A stretch of DNA of 13,309 nt from the UHGV virus genome UHGV-0148168; one strand, given 5' to 3'. Position 1 is the first letter of the stretch; the number at the start of each line of letters is the position of its first letter. The DNA is from a virus. Shown here piece after piece: positions 2,369-12,552 of this stretch. A program made the position numbers and the translations under genes. The notes beneath the pieces were generated by a model. That model did not search any database, was not told where the DNA came from, and saw nothing but the letters and a program-made list of their open reading frames with translations.

Positions 2369-2707
2369 TTAAAAGAATTTAAATTTTTTCTTTGACCTTT
2401 TATTAAATGCATCTTGCAGTTGCATTGTAATACATTTTTCTACATGAGGAGCTAACTCAGCTTTTCTTTCTTGGTCAAGAACAGCAAAGTCCATTACAAC
2501 CTTTCCATCAACCCAATCCAGTTTAGTTACATACACTATATGTGTAGAACCATCTTCTAGTTTAATGACAATCTCCTGGATAACATTTTCCATAGCGGAT
2601 TTAATTATCTTAAGAGACTCATTAAAAAGACGTTCTTTTCTTTCTTCTTCCCCCTCCGAAGAGGGGGATTCATCGATAATTTCTAAATCTAAATCATCTT
2701 TACTCAT
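2369..2707 (-). CDS. 40: Gene 40-like protein (T4 gp40, head vertex assembly chaperone); most likely ATG start at 2707 (112 aa), with the track's 118-aa version starting at a GTG at 2725
   Basis: Position between uvsX and gene 41 as in T4. The ATG at 2707..2705 overlaps the last uvsX codons; the track's first codon is GTG. The start choice is uncertain; identity rests on synteny only. Confidence 0.55.
   Translation of the reverse strand: MSKDDLDLEIIDESPSSEGEEERKERLFNESLKIIKSAMENVIQEIVIKLEDGSTHIVYVTKLDWVDGKVVMDFAVLDQERKAELAPHVEKCITMQLQDAFNKRSKKKFKFF
2650..2667 (-). other. GC-rich RNA hairpin CCCCCUC-UUCG-GAGGGGG (7-bp stem, UUCG tetraloop) inside the 5' coding region of gene 40, 32 nt downstream of the uvsX stop
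   Basis: Read directly: plus 2650..2656 ccccctc, 2657..2660 cgaa, 2661..2667 gaggggg. On the mRNA strand this is a perfect stem with a UUCG loop and encodes SPSSEGE in the gene 40 frame. Confidence 0.7.
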
Positions 2708-3958: not shown

Positions 3959-4801
3959 TTAATCAACTGCTATTGGATGAATAGCATTAAACTTATGAAA
4001 TGCTTCTGATTTTTCTTTACGCGAAACACACATGCGAAGAACCTTTAATGGTTCATCTTCTTCACCCAACGATTTTCGTTTTTCAATATTAGAAGTTTTC
4101 CAACGAGCTTGCTCTGGAAACTCTCTATTGATTTGCTCAAGCGCTCTATTATGTTTAGAATTACTACGAATTGAACTACATCCACCGGGAGCGTGTGATT
4201 TTCCAGATACAACTAGATATTTGAACAAGGCCAAATGCGGATAACCTTGATTAATTAAATTGAGAAATGCATACATATCTTCGCATAAATCAATTTTTCC
4301 ATACCCAATTTGTTCTGTCGTAAGTTTTCCGAGGTCATACCATGTATTCGTGAATCCATATGAGTTTTCACGATAATTACCCCAAGATGAAGTAATTTTA
4401 AAAATTGGTAGACGAGCATGACCGTGATAATACCCGCAATCCATGGCATCTTCAACATATTGAATCAATTCATAGAACTGTTCACGAGTTAATTGATTAA
4501 TTTTATCTACGCGCCGTTTATCGTCTCTCTTTCGTATTGAACTCATACGAATAGTAGTATCATCATCAATCATCCATATTCGTTGACCTGCATACATATC
4601 AGTAATTGCTTTACGAGTACCGGAAATTCCATTAACATCATCAGGAATAGTTACAATTTTAGCTCTAGACCCATAAGCATCATAATAAGCTTTTTCTTCG
4701 TGTTCACGCACTACAATATGGGGTTCATAATCAGTCGGAAACATATCAAGGGCAGAAACTGCCCCTACACGCTGATAACTTGGAATTACGAATTGAATCA
4801 T
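3959..4801 (-). CDS. Putative DNA-modifying glycosyltransferase of GT-A type, 280 aa, at the locus where T4 carries beta-glucosyltransferase
   Basis: N-terminal FVIPSYQR followed about 75 residues later by WMIDDD (DxD) is the GT-A fold signature. T4 beta-gt is 351 aa and GT-B, and does not resemble this. Placement between uvsX and gene 42 suggests a hydroxymethylcytosine glucosylation enzyme such as the T2/T6-type beta-glucosyl-HMC-alpha-glucosyltransferase (uncertain recall). Confidence 0.5.
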   Translation of the reverse strand: MIQFVIPSYQRVGAVSALDMFPTDYEPHIVVREHEEKAYYDAYGSRAKIVTIPDDVNGISGTRKAITDMYAGQRIWMIDDDTTIRMSSIRKRDDKRRVDKINQLTREQFYELIQYVEDAMDCGYYHGHARLPIFKITSSWGNYRENSYGFTNTWYDLGKLTTEQIGYGKIDLCEDMYAFLNLINQGYPHLALFKYLVVSGKSHAPGGCSSIRSNSKHNRALEQINREFPEQARWKTSNIEKRKSLGEEDEPLKVLRMCVSRKEKSEAFHKFNAIHPIAVD

Positions 4802-5439
4802 TTAAGTGCCTTACATTTGTCAAAATGGTATCTTGTCATATTTGGCCCACGTCCTTTTAGTCCGCAATGCGGACATATTTTTTCTATCAAATTATGAGGT
4901 TTTCCTTTACGATTTTTAGACATCGTTTCTTTAATTATTTTAGCTTTTTCTGCGCCAAAAATTTCTTCATAAGTTTTACCAGAATTTTCCTTTGCTCGAT
5001 TTATAATTCCATATGCCTGCTCATTTTTACCATACATTGGATTACCTTCGCCTTTCATTCTTTTAGAATGATCAGGACGCTTGATTCCACGAAAGGCATT
5101 TCCGCACTTATATCTTTCTTCTGGAGATAGTTTTTTACCGTACATTCCATTTAATTTGCCTGGAAAACTTCCTCCCCATGCTTCATTCTTTAAATTATAT
5201 GAATCCGGACAATTAGCAGCATCTAAACAAGTTAAAATAATTTCTTCAACCTGTCTAAACATTGGTCCTTCATATAATATTTCTTTATTAAAGGATTTTA
5301 TTCCATATTTCTTTTTAGCATGTTGCCAAACTACACCCGAACCATCATAATTTGGGTTGTGACCATCATGACTTCCTATATACCACTTTTTAGTTTTAGG
5401 ATGTTTATACTTATAAACATGTGGCACATTTACTTCCAT
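4798..5439 (-). CDS. GIY-YIG family homing endonuclease (Seg-like), 213 aa, with NUMOD-like repeats and a C-terminal CxxC zinc-finger-like motif
   Basis: N-terminal VYKYKHPKTKKWYIGS fits the GIY...YIG motif. Repeated G-x-YGK/basic modules (NGMYGKK, NPMYGKN) and C-terminal CPHCG...DKC. The start overlaps the gene 42 end by 10 nt and the stop overlaps the glycosyltransferase start (ATGA), with no own promoter; typical of free-standing phage homing-endonuclease genes. Confidence 0.7.
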   Translation of the reverse strand: MEVNVPHVYKYKHPKTKKWYIGSHDGHNPNYDGSGVVWQHAKKKYGIKSFNKEILYEGPMFRQVEEIILTCLDAANCPDSYNLKNEAWGGSFPGKLNGMYGKKLSPEERYKCGNAFRGIKRPDHSKRMKGEGNPMYGKNEQAYGIINRAKENSGKTYEEIFGAEKAKIIKETMSKNRKGKPHNLIEKICPHCGLKGRGPNMTRYHFDKCKALK

Positions 5440-7110: not shown

Positions 7111-7131
7111 AAAAAGGGACCCGGAGGTCCC
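7111..7131 (-). terminator. Rho-independent terminator after gene 43: GGGACC-UCCG-GGUCCC hairpin followed by UUUUU
   Basis: Plus 7116..7131 gggacccggaggtccc is a perfect 6-bp inverted repeat with a 4-nt loop. On the minus strand it is followed by TTTTT (7115..7111). Begins 13 nt after the gene 43 stop codon. Confidence 0.8.
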
Positions 7132-7144
7132 TAGATTTATTCTA

Positions 7145-9841
7145 TCAGCCAAACAGGAAGTCTAACGAAGCTTTTTCCTCATAATCCATACCAGCCGATT
7201 CACACATACCCGCAAGCGGTTTAACAAACGATTTTTGGAACAAAGTTGAGTAGTCAATCCAAGATAGTACATCAGAACGAATTTCTTTTGGAAGTTCTGT
7301 GCCCGACGGCCAAGCAATGCACTTGTCACCAAATGGATTTCCTTCACGCAATGGAAGAACCATTACCTTATTTCCATCCAAAATTGGAGCTACACCTAGA
7401 CCACTAACAGCTCGACGATAAGTTAGCACACCGCGAATATGGAACGGGCATTTAAATCCTGGCCAACCTTTATCATCATATTTCGCTATATCGTTCGCAG
7501 TTTTTACTTCAGCAATAACTTTATAGTCGAGTTGACGATATTCTTTCTCAAAGTTCTTGTAGTATTCTTGGACAGACTCTTCACCTTCCTGAAGAATACG
7601 ACGAATACTTTCTTCGAGAGCTTCTTGCACTGCTTTTGGTGTTGAACTCTGCTGAGTTTCCATGCCCATGATTTTTAGATGCGGTTCAGCAAATCGCTTA
7701 TCTTCCATATCATAAACGTTCAGAGCATAACGTTTTTTCGCTTTCCAAAATCCACCAACACCCTTTGAACCAAGCGGAGGGCAAGAAATAGCTTCACGGT
7801 CCATATGCATCAGATGCTCGCGATTATTCATATAATCACATAACTCACGATATGCAACATCAATCATAGGTTCCATCTTTTTCTTACCAAACTGATTCAT
7901 GAATTCAACTAAATCATTTTGTTCTTTAAAGCGGTCAAGACCTACTTTTTCAATTACTTTATCTACACAAACATATACCGAATCAGTATCACCTGCTGCA
8001 ATGAAATCTTCATCATTAGTTCCGCATACTTTATTCAGATATTCATTAATTTTACGAGCAATCCACTGAATACCGACTTGGCCAAAAATTGTGATAGCAG
8101 TAGCATTTCGCAAATCATAGTAACGGAAATGAATATTACCAAGAGCACCATAAAGACTGTTAATAAGAATTTTACGGTTTAGCTGATTTGTATTAGCAAG
8201 TGTAGCCGCTTTTTCACATTCTTCAATCAGACTATTGAGAACAGATTCAGTATAATTCGATAGTTCATTTAAGAAATCATCACTGAACTTAACATATCGT
8301 TCAACTTCTGGTTTAGTTGAACAAGACCCTGCGCCTTTCATAATAATCTTTTTAATAGCTTCGGCATTCATTTCTTCAGCGAACATTTTCTTTTTCCAAT
8401 CTTTACGCTGGAAAAATACTTTAGCGATTTCCTTTGGAATGATACCTTCTTGATGCTTATCATACATCCATCCATTCGGAGAACAAGAATATTCATCACT
8501 CGGTTTAGGAGCTGTTCCTGCGATATATTCATGAATTGGATGAACTTTAAACTGCCCACGAATAGTCTCAGGACTAATGTTAACCTGACGAATAATGCTC
8601 GGATACAGAGACGTCAAGTCAAAACTCATAATATATCGACGAGCAATTGGTTTAGGTTCAAACACAAATGCACCCGGAAAACTCTGTTTAACGTGCGAAC
8701 CTTGTTGAGGAATAACCTTATGTTCACCTTTCAATGAGTTAAAAATAATAGCATCCCAAGTTTTAATAGGACTCATTACACCGGAAAAAGGCATTTTAGC
8801 GTAATAAGACATACTTAAAACTAGATCGATAAACCCACGAATTTTATCAATTGCTTGAACTGATTCTACGTCAATGATGTTATAACTAATGTATCGTTGA
8901 TGATTAGTCTCACGAAGTTTATTAATAGGACCGTCGTATGGTAATTTACCTTTTTTGGTTTCATGCTGAGCAACTGATTCCAAAGAGAATGACGGCAAAT
9001 TAGTAAAAGCGAATTTCTTGTACAAATCTAAATAATCAAGAATAGATACGCCATCAATAGAATAAATTTCTTTGCTACCGTACATATTTTGAATTAGTTT
9101 AGATTTTACCCGACCGATTGGAGAGAAGCGTTTCATACTACGTTCGCCCAGAATCATTTTAACACGATTCATGATATACGGAACGTCAAACCCCTCAATA
9201 TTCCAACCGGTAAAAATAGCAGGTCGTTTCTGTTCCCAGAGATTGATATATTCCATGAGCATATCACGCTCATTATCGAATGGCATATAAATTACTCTGT
9301 CAAGAATTTCTTGAGGAACTTCATCACCACCTTCACAGTCAAGCTTAGCAGCTAACTTTGCATCCCATTTTGATACTGAACCGTACATTGAATTCAAAAG
9401 GTCGAAAACATAAAAACGATCGTCAATTGAATCATAATGAGTGATAGCATCAATTTCATATTCAGCTTTCATTGGGTCAGGAAATTTATCACCAGTAACC
9501 TCAATATCACAGTTAGCTACACGAACAAATTTTCGGTCATAAACAATTTCTGAACCATACGTATCACTGATATAAGCGAGTTTAAAATCGTTCATACCAA
9601 GAGCTTCGAGACCGATGTCTTCCATTCGCTTCATCCAATCTCGAGCATCTTTCATTGATTGAAATTTTTGAGGAGCGCAATTTTTACCATAAATGTCTTT
9701 GTACTTTGACTCTTCCTTACAATGCCTAAACATAGTCGGAAGATATTCTACTTCACGAGTACGTTCCTTTCCGTTTTCATCAATATAACGTTCAACAATG
9801 TTATTTCCGACTGTTTCGATAGAGATATAAAATTCTTTCAT
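7145..9841 (-). CDS. 43: Gene 43 DNA polymerase (family B, with 3'-5' exonuclease), 898 aa
   Basis: 898 aa equals T4 gp43. N-terminus MKEFYISIETVGNNIVERYIDENGKERTREVEY matches my recollection of T4 gp43. Exo I motif CDIEV, pol motif A DLTSLYPS, motif B KILINSLYGALG, motif C GDTDS. Confidence 0.96.
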   Translation of the reverse strand: MKEFYISIETVGNNIVERYIDENGKERTREVEYLPTMFRHCKEESKYKDIYGKNCAPQKFQSMKDARDWMKRMEDIGLEALGMNDFKLAYISDTYGSEIVYDRKFVRVANCDIEVTGDKFPDPMKAEYEIDAITHYDSIDDRFYVFDLLNSMYGSVSKWDAKLAAKLDCEGGDEVPQEILDRVIYMPFDNERDMLMEYINLWEQKRPAIFTGWNIEGFDVPYIMNRVKMILGERSMKRFSPIGRVKSKLIQNMYGSKEIYSIDGVSILDYLDLYKKFAFTNLPSFSLESVAQHETKKGKLPYDGPINKLRETNHQRYISYNIIDVESVQAIDKIRGFIDLVLSMSYYAKMPFSGVMSPIKTWDAIIFNSLKGEHKVIPQQGSHVKQSFPGAFVFEPKPIARRYIMSFDLTSLYPSIIRQVNISPETIRGQFKVHPIHEYIAGTAPKPSDEYSCSPNGWMYDKHQEGIIPKEIAKVFFQRKDWKKKMFAEEMNAEAIKKIIMKGAGSCSTKPEVERYVKFSDDFLNELSNYTESVLNSLIEECEKAATLANTNQLNRKILINSLYGALGNIHFRYYDLRNATAITIFGQVGIQWIARKINEYLNKVCGTNDEDFIAAGDTDSVYVCVDKVIEKVGLDRFKEQNDLVEFMNQFGKKKMEPMIDVAYRELCDYMNNREHLMHMDREAISCPPLGSKGVGGFWKAKKRYALNVYDMEDKRFAEPHLKIMGMETQQSSTPKAVQEALEESIRRILQEGEESVQEYYKNFEKEYRQLDYKVIAEVKTANDIAKYDDKGWPGFKCPFHIRGVLTYRRAVSGLGVAPILDGNKVMVLPLREGNPFGDKCIAWPSGTELPKEIRSDVLSWIDYSTLFQKSFVKPLAGMCESAGMDYEEKASLDFLFG

Positions 9842-9880
9842 AGATATTCCTTAGTTTATAGCCCGAGTTATTAGGCTCTT
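9842..9880 (-). promoter_or_regulatory. Gene 43 translational operator: mRNA hairpin (stem AGCCU/GGGCU, 8-nt loop AAUAACUC) plus Shine-Dalgarno AGGA, the site bound by gp43 for autogenous translational repression
   Basis: Minus strand reads GAGCCUAAUAACUCGGGCUAUAAACUAAGGAAUAUCUAUG. The loop AAUAACUC (plus 9865..9872) is the wild-type loop I recall from the T4 gene 43 operator used in the original SELEX experiment. Confidence 0.8.
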
Positions 9881-9899
9881 GATATATTATACTCCAAAT

Positions 9900-9917
9900 A
9901 AGGGGCCGAAGCCCCTT
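9900..9917 (-). other. GC-rich UUCG-tetraloop hairpin AAGGGGC-UUCG-GCCCCUU, starting 2 nt after the regA stop codon
   Basis: Plus 9900..9906 aaggggc, 9907..9910 cgaa, 9911..9917 gcccctt. Perfect 7-bp stem; the loop reads UUCG on the mRNA. Followed by UAUUUGGAG and a TATAAT at 9891..9886. Confidence 0.75.
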
Positions 9918-9919
9918 GC

Positions 9920-10288
9920 TTAATTACCAATCGTATATTTAGGAACGAGTTTCCATTCATGTTTTTGTTTAAAAGAAATAACTCGGAAGTTATTAGTTAA
10001 ATCTTTCATAAAAGTTCTTTGACCAGGAACGATTTCAATCAGTCCCCAATCTTCTAACAACCATGCTATTGAATCACGACGAACTTCATCTTCTTCTGTC
10101 ATTTCAACTTGGCGACCATCCATACGAAGCATTTCTTTAAAATGAACGATATAGTATAGTCCTTTTTTCTGAAGAATATGACAGGACTGATACAGAACTT
10201 TATCTTTATTATTAGCAATTCCCATACGAGTCAAAGTTTCTTTTACTTTCAGAAAATCTTCAGGTTTTTTAAGAGTAATTTCAATCAT
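9920..10288 (-). CDS. regA: RegA translational repressor of early genes, 122 aa
   Basis: 122 aa equals T4 RegA. Position between genes 62 and 43 as in T4. The ATG lies 1 nt after the gene 62 stop (TAA-A-ATG). Confidence 0.85.
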   Translation of the reverse strand: MIEITLKKPEDFLKVKETLTRMGIANNKDKVLYQSCHILQKKGLYYIVHFKEMLRMDGRQVEMTEEDEVRRDSIAWLLEDWGLIEIVPGQRTFMKDLTNNFRVISFKQKHEWKLVPKYTIGN

Positions 10289-11814: not shown

Positions 11815-11848
11815 AATTTCCTCATTCAAGTTTTAGTGTAAATTATAA

Positions 11849-11862
11849 AGGGCCGAAGCCCT
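11849..11862 (-). other. UUCG-tetraloop hairpin AGGGC-UUCG-GCCCU (extendable to 7 bp with a G-U pair), 3 nt after the gene 45 stop codon
   Basis: Plus 11849..11853 agggc, 11854..11857 cgaa, 11858..11862 gccct. On the mRNA it reads AGAGGGCUUCGGCCCUUU and is followed directly by UAUAAU (11847..11842), then the gene 44 Shine-Dalgarno. Confidence 0.7.
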
Positions 11863-11865
11863 CTA

Positions 11866-12552
11866 TTAAAAATCATGGGTAGAATCAGCTTCAAGAGCTA
11901 CTACATAATTCGCATGTTCACCTTCAAATTTAGCAGCGCCTTGTTTACCTTTTGCCCAGAGCAGAAGTTTATAATTTCCTGGTTGCATTTTCATATTTGC
12001 CATATTGATAATGAAATTAAATGTATTTTCACCATCGTAATCACCAAGAGTCAAAGAATATTTAACACGTGTCAAAGCAGAATCTTCTACTTTATTAAAA
12101 CCGTTAATTACGATTTTACCTTCTTTTACCGTGATAGCAATTGTATCAATTTGCAGACCACGAGATACACGCAACAGCTGTTGAAGGTCTTCAGCTTTAA
12201 TTTCGGTAACAACAGATGCTACCGGGAATGGAATTGGTTTATTAGGAGCAACTACTGTACTCGGATCGGCTGCTGGCCAAAAAATTGTTGAGCGTGCATC
12301 AGCAATTTTAATATTTCCATCTTCTGACTGGGAAATTTCTGCATCATCATTAACTAGAGACAGAATACCGAGAAAACCGTTCAAATCGTAAATTGCTACA
12401 TCAAAATCAATAACGTCAGAAATATTTGCTTCCGCATAAGTTGTACCATTAACTGCGCGAGTCATAATAAATTGACCTGATTTAAGCATAATGCCAGAGT
12501 TAATAGTAGCGAAATTTTTCAAAATATTCAGTGTGTCTTTAGATAATTTCAT
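11866..12552 (-). CDS. 45: Gene 45 sliding clamp (PCNA-like processivity factor), 228 aa
   Basis: 228 aa equals T4 gp45 and the N-terminus MKLSKDTLNILKNFATINSG matches my recollection. Sits upstream of 44/62 as in T4. The ATG overlaps the stop of the upstream ORF (ATGA). Confidence 0.9.
   Translation of the reverse strand: MKLSKDTLNILKNFATINSGIMLKSGQFIMTRAVNGTTYAEANISDVIDFDVAIYDLNGFLGILSLVNDDAEISQSEDGNIKIADARSTIFWPAADPSTVVAPNKPIPFPVASVVTEIKAEDLQQLLRVSRGLQIDTIAITVKEGKIVINGFNKVEDSALTRVKYSLTLGDYDGENTFNFIINMANMKMQPGNYKLLLWAKGKQGAAKFEGEHANYVVALEADSTHDF

Follow-up and report, generated by a model that had tools for sequence, protein, structure and literature searches.

The intergenic regions of phage T4 are rich in CUUCGG hairpins (Tuerk 1988, as summarised in PMC8948821), and T4 intergenic stem-loops, terminators among them, often carry UUCG (Durand et al., PMC1702504). 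The role of these C(UUCG)G hairpins varies by site; individual examples act as a terminator, as a 5' stabiliser or as a reverse-transcriptase stop. The middle promoters of T4, of which about 60 mapped examples are tabulated in the review of Hinton (2010; PMC2988021), combine a sigma-70 -10 element with a MotA box of consensus (a/t)(a/t)(a/t)TGCTTtA, 12 ± 1 bp upstream of the -10, and have no -35 element. One of them is P43, a MotA-dependent promoter with a start at T4 29933 (PMC2988021 Table 1, citing Guild 1988 and Hsu & Karam 1990). The translational operator of gp43 is an 18-nt hairpin with UAAC in its loop (PMC3014915), and the RegB/S1 consensus GGAGRAYARAA and the RegB site of motB, GGAGUAUAAAA, have likewise been described (PMC1702504, PMC3014915).

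Here we analysed the boundary between regA and gene 43 in a 13,309-nt stretch of viral DNA (UHGV-0148168), the whole of which is referred to as the window. The original prediction, made from the letters of the window, was that a UUCG hairpin just after regA could protect the 3' end of the regA message or partially terminate transcription, and that a TATAAT beyond it may start a separate gene 43 transcript with the gp43 operator. Our results support this interpretation; the boundary is real and conserved, but it is already known T4 biology.

Organization of the regA-43 spacer

The minus strand carries all long ORFs in the window and is the coding sense for every gene (ORF list); the G+C content is 35%. 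Shigella phage SHFML-11 is 100% identical to the window over 701 compared bases around the site, and hundreds of Tequatrovirus genomes are 97-99.6% identical over the same 701 bases. The alignment with T4 around the spacer has one difference in 141 bases, located inside regA. The 78-bp spacer itself does not differ from that of T4, and the T4 literature is therefore directly applicable; T4 coordinates (AF158101) were converted into window coordinates by subtracting 20052. The gene is annotated as regA in T4, T6 and other records, and the gene order in annotated records is 45, 44, 62, regA, 43. No regulatory features are given at the site in the GenBank records of T4, T6 and SHFML-11. A search of the whole window against Rfam returned no family above the gathering thresholds, and the matches around the site were at chance level only (E > 1). 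Elsewhere in the window, between gene 42 and uvsX (~3959-5439, minus strand), a 213-aa hypothetical ORF and a 280-aa glucosyltransferase occupy the place that corresponds to the 351-aa beta-glucosyltransferase and segA of T4.

The elements of the spacer are collected in Table 1. The coordinates predicted for the hairpin proved exact, on the minus strand, with only two bases between the regA stop and the stem, and the distance of 9 nt quoted for the TATAAT corresponds to eight intervening bases, the hexamer starting at the ninth.

Table 1. Features of the regA-43 boundary, in window coordinates
Feature	Coordinates	Strand	Basis
regA, translational repressor, 122 aa	9920..10288	-	ORF list; SHFML-11 identity; annotation in T4, T6 and others
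regA stop codon, TAA	9922-9920	-	sequence
GC, two bases between regA stop and hairpin	9919-9918	-	sequence
C(UUCG)G tetraloop hairpin, AAGGGGC-UUCG-GCCCCUU	9917-9900	-	sequence, fold, covariation, RNAalifold
Hairpin 5' arm, AAGGGGC	9917-9911	-	
Hairpin loop, UUCG	9910-9907	-	
Hairpin 3' arm, GCCCCUU	9906-9900	-	
UUAUUU, U-rich tract directly 3' of the G-C core of the stem; moderate terminator-type tail	9896..9901	-	
ATTTGGAG, eight bases between hairpin and TATAAT		-	sequence
GGAGUAUAAUA, GGAG plus A/U-rich 7-mer, overlapping the -10	9885..9895	-	near RegB/S1 consensus GGAGRAYARAA
TATAAT, -10 of MotA-dependent middle promoter P43	9891-9886	-	PMC2988021 Table 1 and coordinate transfer
P43 transcription start, approximate	9879..9881	-	T4 29933 = window 9881; mapping precision ~2 nt
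ATATCAAG, between TATAAT and operator hairpin		-	sequence
gp43 translational operator hairpin, AGCCUAAUAACUCGGGCU (AGCCTAATAACTCGGGCT)	9877-9860	-	fold; covariation in relatives
Shine-Dalgarno sequence, AAGGA	9852-9848	-	sequence
Gene 43, DNA polymerase, 898 aa, ATG at 9841	7145..9852 (including Shine-Dalgarno)	-	ORF list, annotation
GGCTTCG within hairpin, forward MotA-box-like, core GCTT	9907..9913	-	definition from PMC2988021
TTGCTTAA, inverted consensus MotA box adjoining hairpin	9916..9923	+	sequence, comparison

Stability and non-randomness of the hairpin

On the sense strand, the hairpin consists of a GGGGC-UUCG-GCCCC core extended by two A-U pairs, and in isolation it folds at -12.1 kcal/mol. 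Chance does not account for it: in 200 dinucleotide shuffles, with both strands counted, tetraloop hairpins of this grade (≥7 stem pairs, including ≥5 G-C) are expected at 0.11 per window, and three were observed in gene-sense orientation. A fourth tetraloop hairpin, after gene 45, has 9 pairs, 4 of them G-C. The loops of all four gene-sense hairpins are UNCG, and the hairpins stand directly past the stop codons of regA, gene 43 and gene 45 and ~30 nt past that of uvsX. That C(UUCG)G hairpins are an intercistronic feature of T4, as the original prediction had stated, is documented (PMC8948821, summarising Tuerk 1988; PMC1702504). The fold of the whole region is unremarkable (z-score -1.27), and the long-range pairing seen in its minimum-free-energy structure was rejected because the alignment consensus gives it no support.

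A canonical intrinsic terminator, AGGGACC-UCCG-GGUCCCU followed by UUUUU, stands 12 nt past the gene 43 stop (7115-7132, minus strand). The gene 45 hairpin (11845-11866, minus strand), AUAGAGGGC-UUCG-GCCCUUUAU, starts at the gene 45 stop codon, and its 3' arm continues into a TATAAT (CCCTTTATAATTT) shortly upstream of gene 44, a layout like that of the regA-43 spacer. No middle promoter is tabulated for gene 44 in PMC2988021, and this hairpin could be an attenuator that accounts for the known difference in synthesis between gp45 and gp44. The hairpin downstream of uvsX (2649-2668, minus strand), UCCCCCUC-UUCG-GAGGGGGA, has 8 pairs, 6 of them G-C, and is followed by AGAAGAAAG with no U-tract, unlike a terminator.

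Conservation across relatives

Comparison of 12 annotated phage loci and 80 IMG/VR loci around regA homologues gave ~36 distinct hairpin variants from several Tevenvirinae genera. In every Tevenvirinae-type locus among them that has the gp43-operator motif and a -10, a tetraloop hairpin with a GC-rich stem precedes the -10 by 5-21 nt. In a motif search the hairpin was present in 48 of 49 matches, and the remaining match was a chance motif on a contig of cyanophage type; further variants have TAAAAT as the -10, and one is without a clear -10. The stem occurs as GGGGC/GCCCC, GGGAC/GUCCC, GGAGCC/GGCUCC, AGGCC/GGCCU, GGGAG/CUCCC and GGGCC/GGCCC, and the loop is UUCG in most variants, with UACG, UCCG, GUAA, GAAA and, once, UUAC in the remainder; all of these except UUAC are tetraloops known to be stable in RNA.

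Pairing is retained throughout this variation. Over 25 distinct sequences, pairing holds in 99.4% of cells, and compensatory double changes occur at six of the seven pairs. The covariation score, computed on an alignment anchored on the detected hairpins, is 0.603, compared with 0.175 in shuffles (0/500 reach 0.603) and at most 0.21 in slid controls. An unanchored MAFFT alignment of the whole spacer, analysed with RNAalifold, yielded two helices only, those of the UUCG hairpin and of the operator, and each shows compensatory changes. Selection thus acts on the hairpin as a structure and not as a sequence, and the comparative data show that compensatory evolution has maintained it in several genera. 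The loops that are stable as RNA lie consistently on the sense strand, which points to selection at the RNA level.

In many relatives, an extra ORF of 54-79 aa (phrog_3826) lies between regA and gene 43. The hairpin of these phages is found 3' of the extra ORF, not of regA, and still beside the -10; what it marks is therefore either where the upstream unit ends or where the gene 43 leader begins, and not regA itself. The comparison shows the hairpin to move together with the gene 43 leader and not with regA. The extra ORF, absent from the window, is present in L003 (792-1028), L004 (783-1004), L005 (792-1016), L012 (962-1126) and many IMG/VR loci; it has the shared motif FDL..E.Q.EFQ, is present or absent among close relatives, and its indel junctions are formed by short AATT(T)AA repeats located at both stop codons.

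A few loci depart from the common arrangement. The operator hairpin of L048 (1548-1641) and L049 (1548-1644) starts 1-5 nt after a -10-like hexamer, and a transcript started there would be without the 5' arm of the operator. L055 (~1740-1870) has no TATAAT, and its operator lies 12 nt past the hairpin. In relatives of these types, gene 43 mRNA is a read-through product or there is no autoregulation.

Promoter P43 and candidate MotA boxes

The TATAAT fits the TAnnnT pattern of a -10 element, and T4 29933 corresponds to window position 9881, 5 nt past it and 3-4 nt ahead of the operator hairpin. The proposal that this hexamer starts a separate gene 43 transcript with the operator is thereby established, being the mapped P43 (PMC2988021 Table 1). 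A -35 element was sought 17 bp upstream and none was found, either by reading the sequence or in a scan of the window, the hexamer there, GGGCTT, matching TTGACA at 1/6 positions; a sigma-70 -35/-10 promoter was rejected on this ground. A late promoter was rejected as well, as TATAAATA occurs nowhere in the window. The operator hairpin, AGCCU-AAUAACUC-GGGCU, agrees with the description of the gp43 operator (PMC3014915), for which an 18-nt hairpin with this loop (UAAC core) is expected ~36-40 nt upstream of the gene 43 AUG. Since P43 starts downstream of the UUCG hairpin, its transcripts are without that hairpin, which is present only on RNAs started upstream; P43 RNAs carry the operator at their extreme 5' end. 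Three points were missing from the original prediction: the dependence of the promoter on MotA without a -35, the position of the hairpin DNA over the -30 region, and the absence of the hairpin from P43 RNAs.

The hairpin DNA covers the -30 region of P43, where GGCTTCG, formed by the hairpin loop and its closing pairs, is the sole forward MotA-like sequence. Its assignment as the MotA box of P43 is uncertain, because it lies 15 bp from the TATAAT and the box spacing in seven neighbouring tabulated T4 middle promoters is 10-13 bp. RB69-type relatives have GACTTCG at 13 bp from the -10; in long-spacer relatives the sequence is TGCTAT or TACTTTA, 11-12 bp away. The forward candidate in the loop is absent from relatives with GNRA, UACG or UUAC loops.

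The sequence that flanks the hairpin on its 5' side, (T)TAA(A)GCAA(T/A), corresponds exactly to the MotA-box consensus read as its reverse complement. This inverted box is kept in 21/24 short-spacer variants while stems and loops change, and it is absent from all 12 long-spacer variants, which have a forward box instead. The two spacer classes are maybe two clades, and the pattern could then stem from a single evolutionary event. In the window, the inverted box TTGCTTAA is followed after 10 bp by TATATT inside regA codons (9916-9939, plus strand). An antisense middle promoter of this form (box, 10-11 bp, TATATT) was rejected as the cause of conservation, because the -10 exists only where the regA codons K-Y-T supply TATATT; it is lost where another ORF precedes the hairpin, and the inverted box is conserved even there. 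The conserved inverted MotA box adjoining the hairpin is unexplained, and together with the non-standard box spacing of P43 it is the sole point that may repay experiment.

Terminator-like features of the hairpin

The tail 3' of the G-C core is UUAUUUGG in T4, with 5 U in 8 nt, interrupted and then followed by GG. Its tail score of -3.95 lies beyond the 5th percentile of the local background (-3.44) and passes a TransTermHP-type cut-off. Counted past the full stem, there are only 3 U in 8 nt. A simple terminator scan of the window did not list the regA-43 hairpin, because the extension of the stem through the A-U pairs leaves 3 T in the next 8 bases. The 5' flank of the hairpin is A-rich.

Every variant has a short U run within a few bases of the stem, either UUU or a T4-type UU-A-UUU/UU-AA-UU. 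In variants with 18-21 nt between hairpin and -10, the tail is a full U-tract (UUUUACUUUAU, UUUUCUGCUAUU) whose scores, -4.0 to -4.6, lie close to the 1st percentile (-4.16) or past it. RB69-type relatives have a weak tail, with AUUU only after the stem. A GC-rich stem, the UUAUUU tract and strong structural conservation together fit 3'-end protection or partial termination. One RNA-seq study took transcription from Pe35.3 as running through gene 43, and read-through past the hairpin is therefore probably substantial. A literature search for T4 Term-seq or dRNA-seq data found none.

Model of the boundary and alternative explanations

The combined results suggest that the hairpin is probably a leaky intrinsic terminator and 3'-exonuclease barrier which ends the RNAs of the 45-44-62-regA unit, fused to the middle promoter of gene 43. 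The structural and promoter parts of this model are secure; termination and 3'-end protection at the hairpin we infer. The hairpin is of the classic T4 intercistronic C(UUCG)G type, placed at the boundary between two transcription units. RNAs started upstream carry the extra-stable 7-bp stem-loop and then UUAUUU, and on these RNAs the element would act both as a leaky terminator and as a block to 3' exonucleases, so that the 3' end of the regA message would be defined and stabilised and read-through into gene 43 limited. The same DNA forms the upstream (-30) part of the MotA/AsiA-dependent P43, with TATAAT as its -10, and P43 RNAs start 5-7 nt past that hexamer and 2-4 nt before the gp43 operator hairpin. 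With its own start and operator, gene 43 would thus be insulated from the upstream operon in both transcriptional input and autogenous translational control. The structure, its non-randomness, the covariation and the fixed place in the cassette come from this analysis, and the P43 start site, the MotA dependence, the operator and the stability of the UUCG loop come from the literature.

The hairpin may instead be a purely post-transcriptional stabiliser of 3' ends, an explanation that we consider unlikely. Polymerase would read through, an enzyme such as RNase E or RegB (the latter at the GGAG, 9895-9892) would cut the RNA downstream, and 3' exonucleases would then degrade it as far as the hairpin, leaving the regA message protected. 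The candidate site GGAGUAUAAUA matches GGAGRAYARAA at 9/11 positions, including the key A6, A8 and A11, and is one position off the motB site, which is cut efficiently. Stimulation of gp43 synthesis by RegB has been reported (PMC3014915), and the title of Hsu & Karam 1990 names 'mRNA processing' sites in the cluster. GGAG is kept ahead of the -10 in most genera, but several have GGGG, GUAG, AGAG or GGAUGA, so RegB cleavage cannot be the conserved function; moreover, the stimulation of middle proteins by RegB has been explained as indirect (PMC1702504) and most middle transcripts are RegB-resistant according to the literature. Blocking of exonucleases alone would also leave the conserved short U run without a need.

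It is distinctly unlikely that the hairpin region is a dual-coded switch and not a passive boundary, although two observations lend themselves to such a scheme. First, the retention of the inverted box as stems and loops change, and its loss where a forward box fits, suggests that MotA, or another factor recognising AAGCAA and the hairpin, may be functionally tied to the hairpin; such a factor could drive P43 in relatives without a forward box, or an antisense transcript into regA. Second, with only 2 nt between the regA stop and the stem, a ribosome that terminates there would open the hairpin, and read-through into gene 43 could depend on the translation of regA, which is itself RegA-repressed.

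A role in the gene 43 leader of read-through RNAs is very unlikely. Cleavage just upstream would make the hairpin 5'-terminal and hence a 5' stabiliser, or the hairpin would insulate the operator against misfolding with upstream sequence. The CUUCGG hairpin of the gene 32 leader is a precedent (PMC8948821), and the regA-43 hairpin is always beside the gene 43 leader, whatever the upstream ORF, even in L055, which has no recognisable TATAAT. However, a signal at the end of an operon explains this adjacency equally well, the U-rich tail and A-rich 5' flank are features of a terminator, and the main gene 43 mRNA, started at P43, is entirely without the hairpin.

Selection on the DNA, whether as an element of P43 architecture or as a recombination-prone cassette resembling the PeSLs, in which GGGG...CCCC stem-loops are joined to promoters and flank gene indels (PMC2839356), is highly improbable: the -30 of P43 does fall within the loop and 5' arm, GGCTTCG does hold the core GCTT, the inverted and forward boxes do follow the spacer classes and a small ORF does come and go beside the hairpin, but the stem sequence varies freely with pairing retained, the loops are RNA-specific stable tetraloops always in sense orientation, the long-spacer class keeps the hairpin though its MotA-like box is outside it, and the ORF indel junction is not the hairpin itself but the short AATT(T)AA repeat that lies upstream.

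Comparison with known systems

The regA-43 hairpin shows no structural difference from the T4 intercistronic C(UUCG)G hairpins (Tuerk 1988, via PMC8948821), with which it shares the CUUCGG motif, a G-C-rich stem, an intergenic position, the sense strand and the extra stability of the RNA. With intrinsic terminators, including those of T4 with UUCG loops (PMC1702504), it has in common the GC-rich stem, the stable tetraloop, the A-rich 5' flank, the U-rich tail and an operon-terminal place just past a stop codon. Its U-tract, in contrast, is short, interrupted and squeezed against the next promoter, so that any termination is probably partial in efficiency; the terminator of gene 43 in the same window has the canonical form.

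PeSLs of RB49 and phi1 also fuse a GGGG...CCCC stem-loop, acting as terminator or attenuator, to the promoter of the next gene, beside a gene that is present or absent (PMC2839356). They carry sigma-70 -35/-10 early promoters and belong to hyperplastic regions, whereas the regA-43 spacer has a middle promoter without a -35 in a conserved core of replication genes. Membership of the PeSLs was rejected for want of a -35 and because the indel junction lies upstream of the hairpin. The CUUCGG hairpin of T4 gene 32 (PMC8948821) is the same motif upstream of an autogenously regulated replication gene; it lies inside the 5' leader of the transcript that it stabilises, whereas the main promoter at the regA-43 boundary starts downstream of the hairpin.

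The promoter is that of T4 itself, with the same TATAAT, no -35, the same mapped start and an identical sequence (PMC2988021 Table 1). It departs from typical middle promoters in that its presumptive box, GGCTTCG, is in a hairpin loop at 15 bp and not 12 ± 1 bp, and in that its start is only 5 nt past the -10. The locus adds nothing new to T4 biology, its promoter, operator and hairpin class having been described in 1988-1990, and it is a clean annotation example in which a terminator-like hairpin, a MotA-type promoter and a translational operator are combined within 78 bp.
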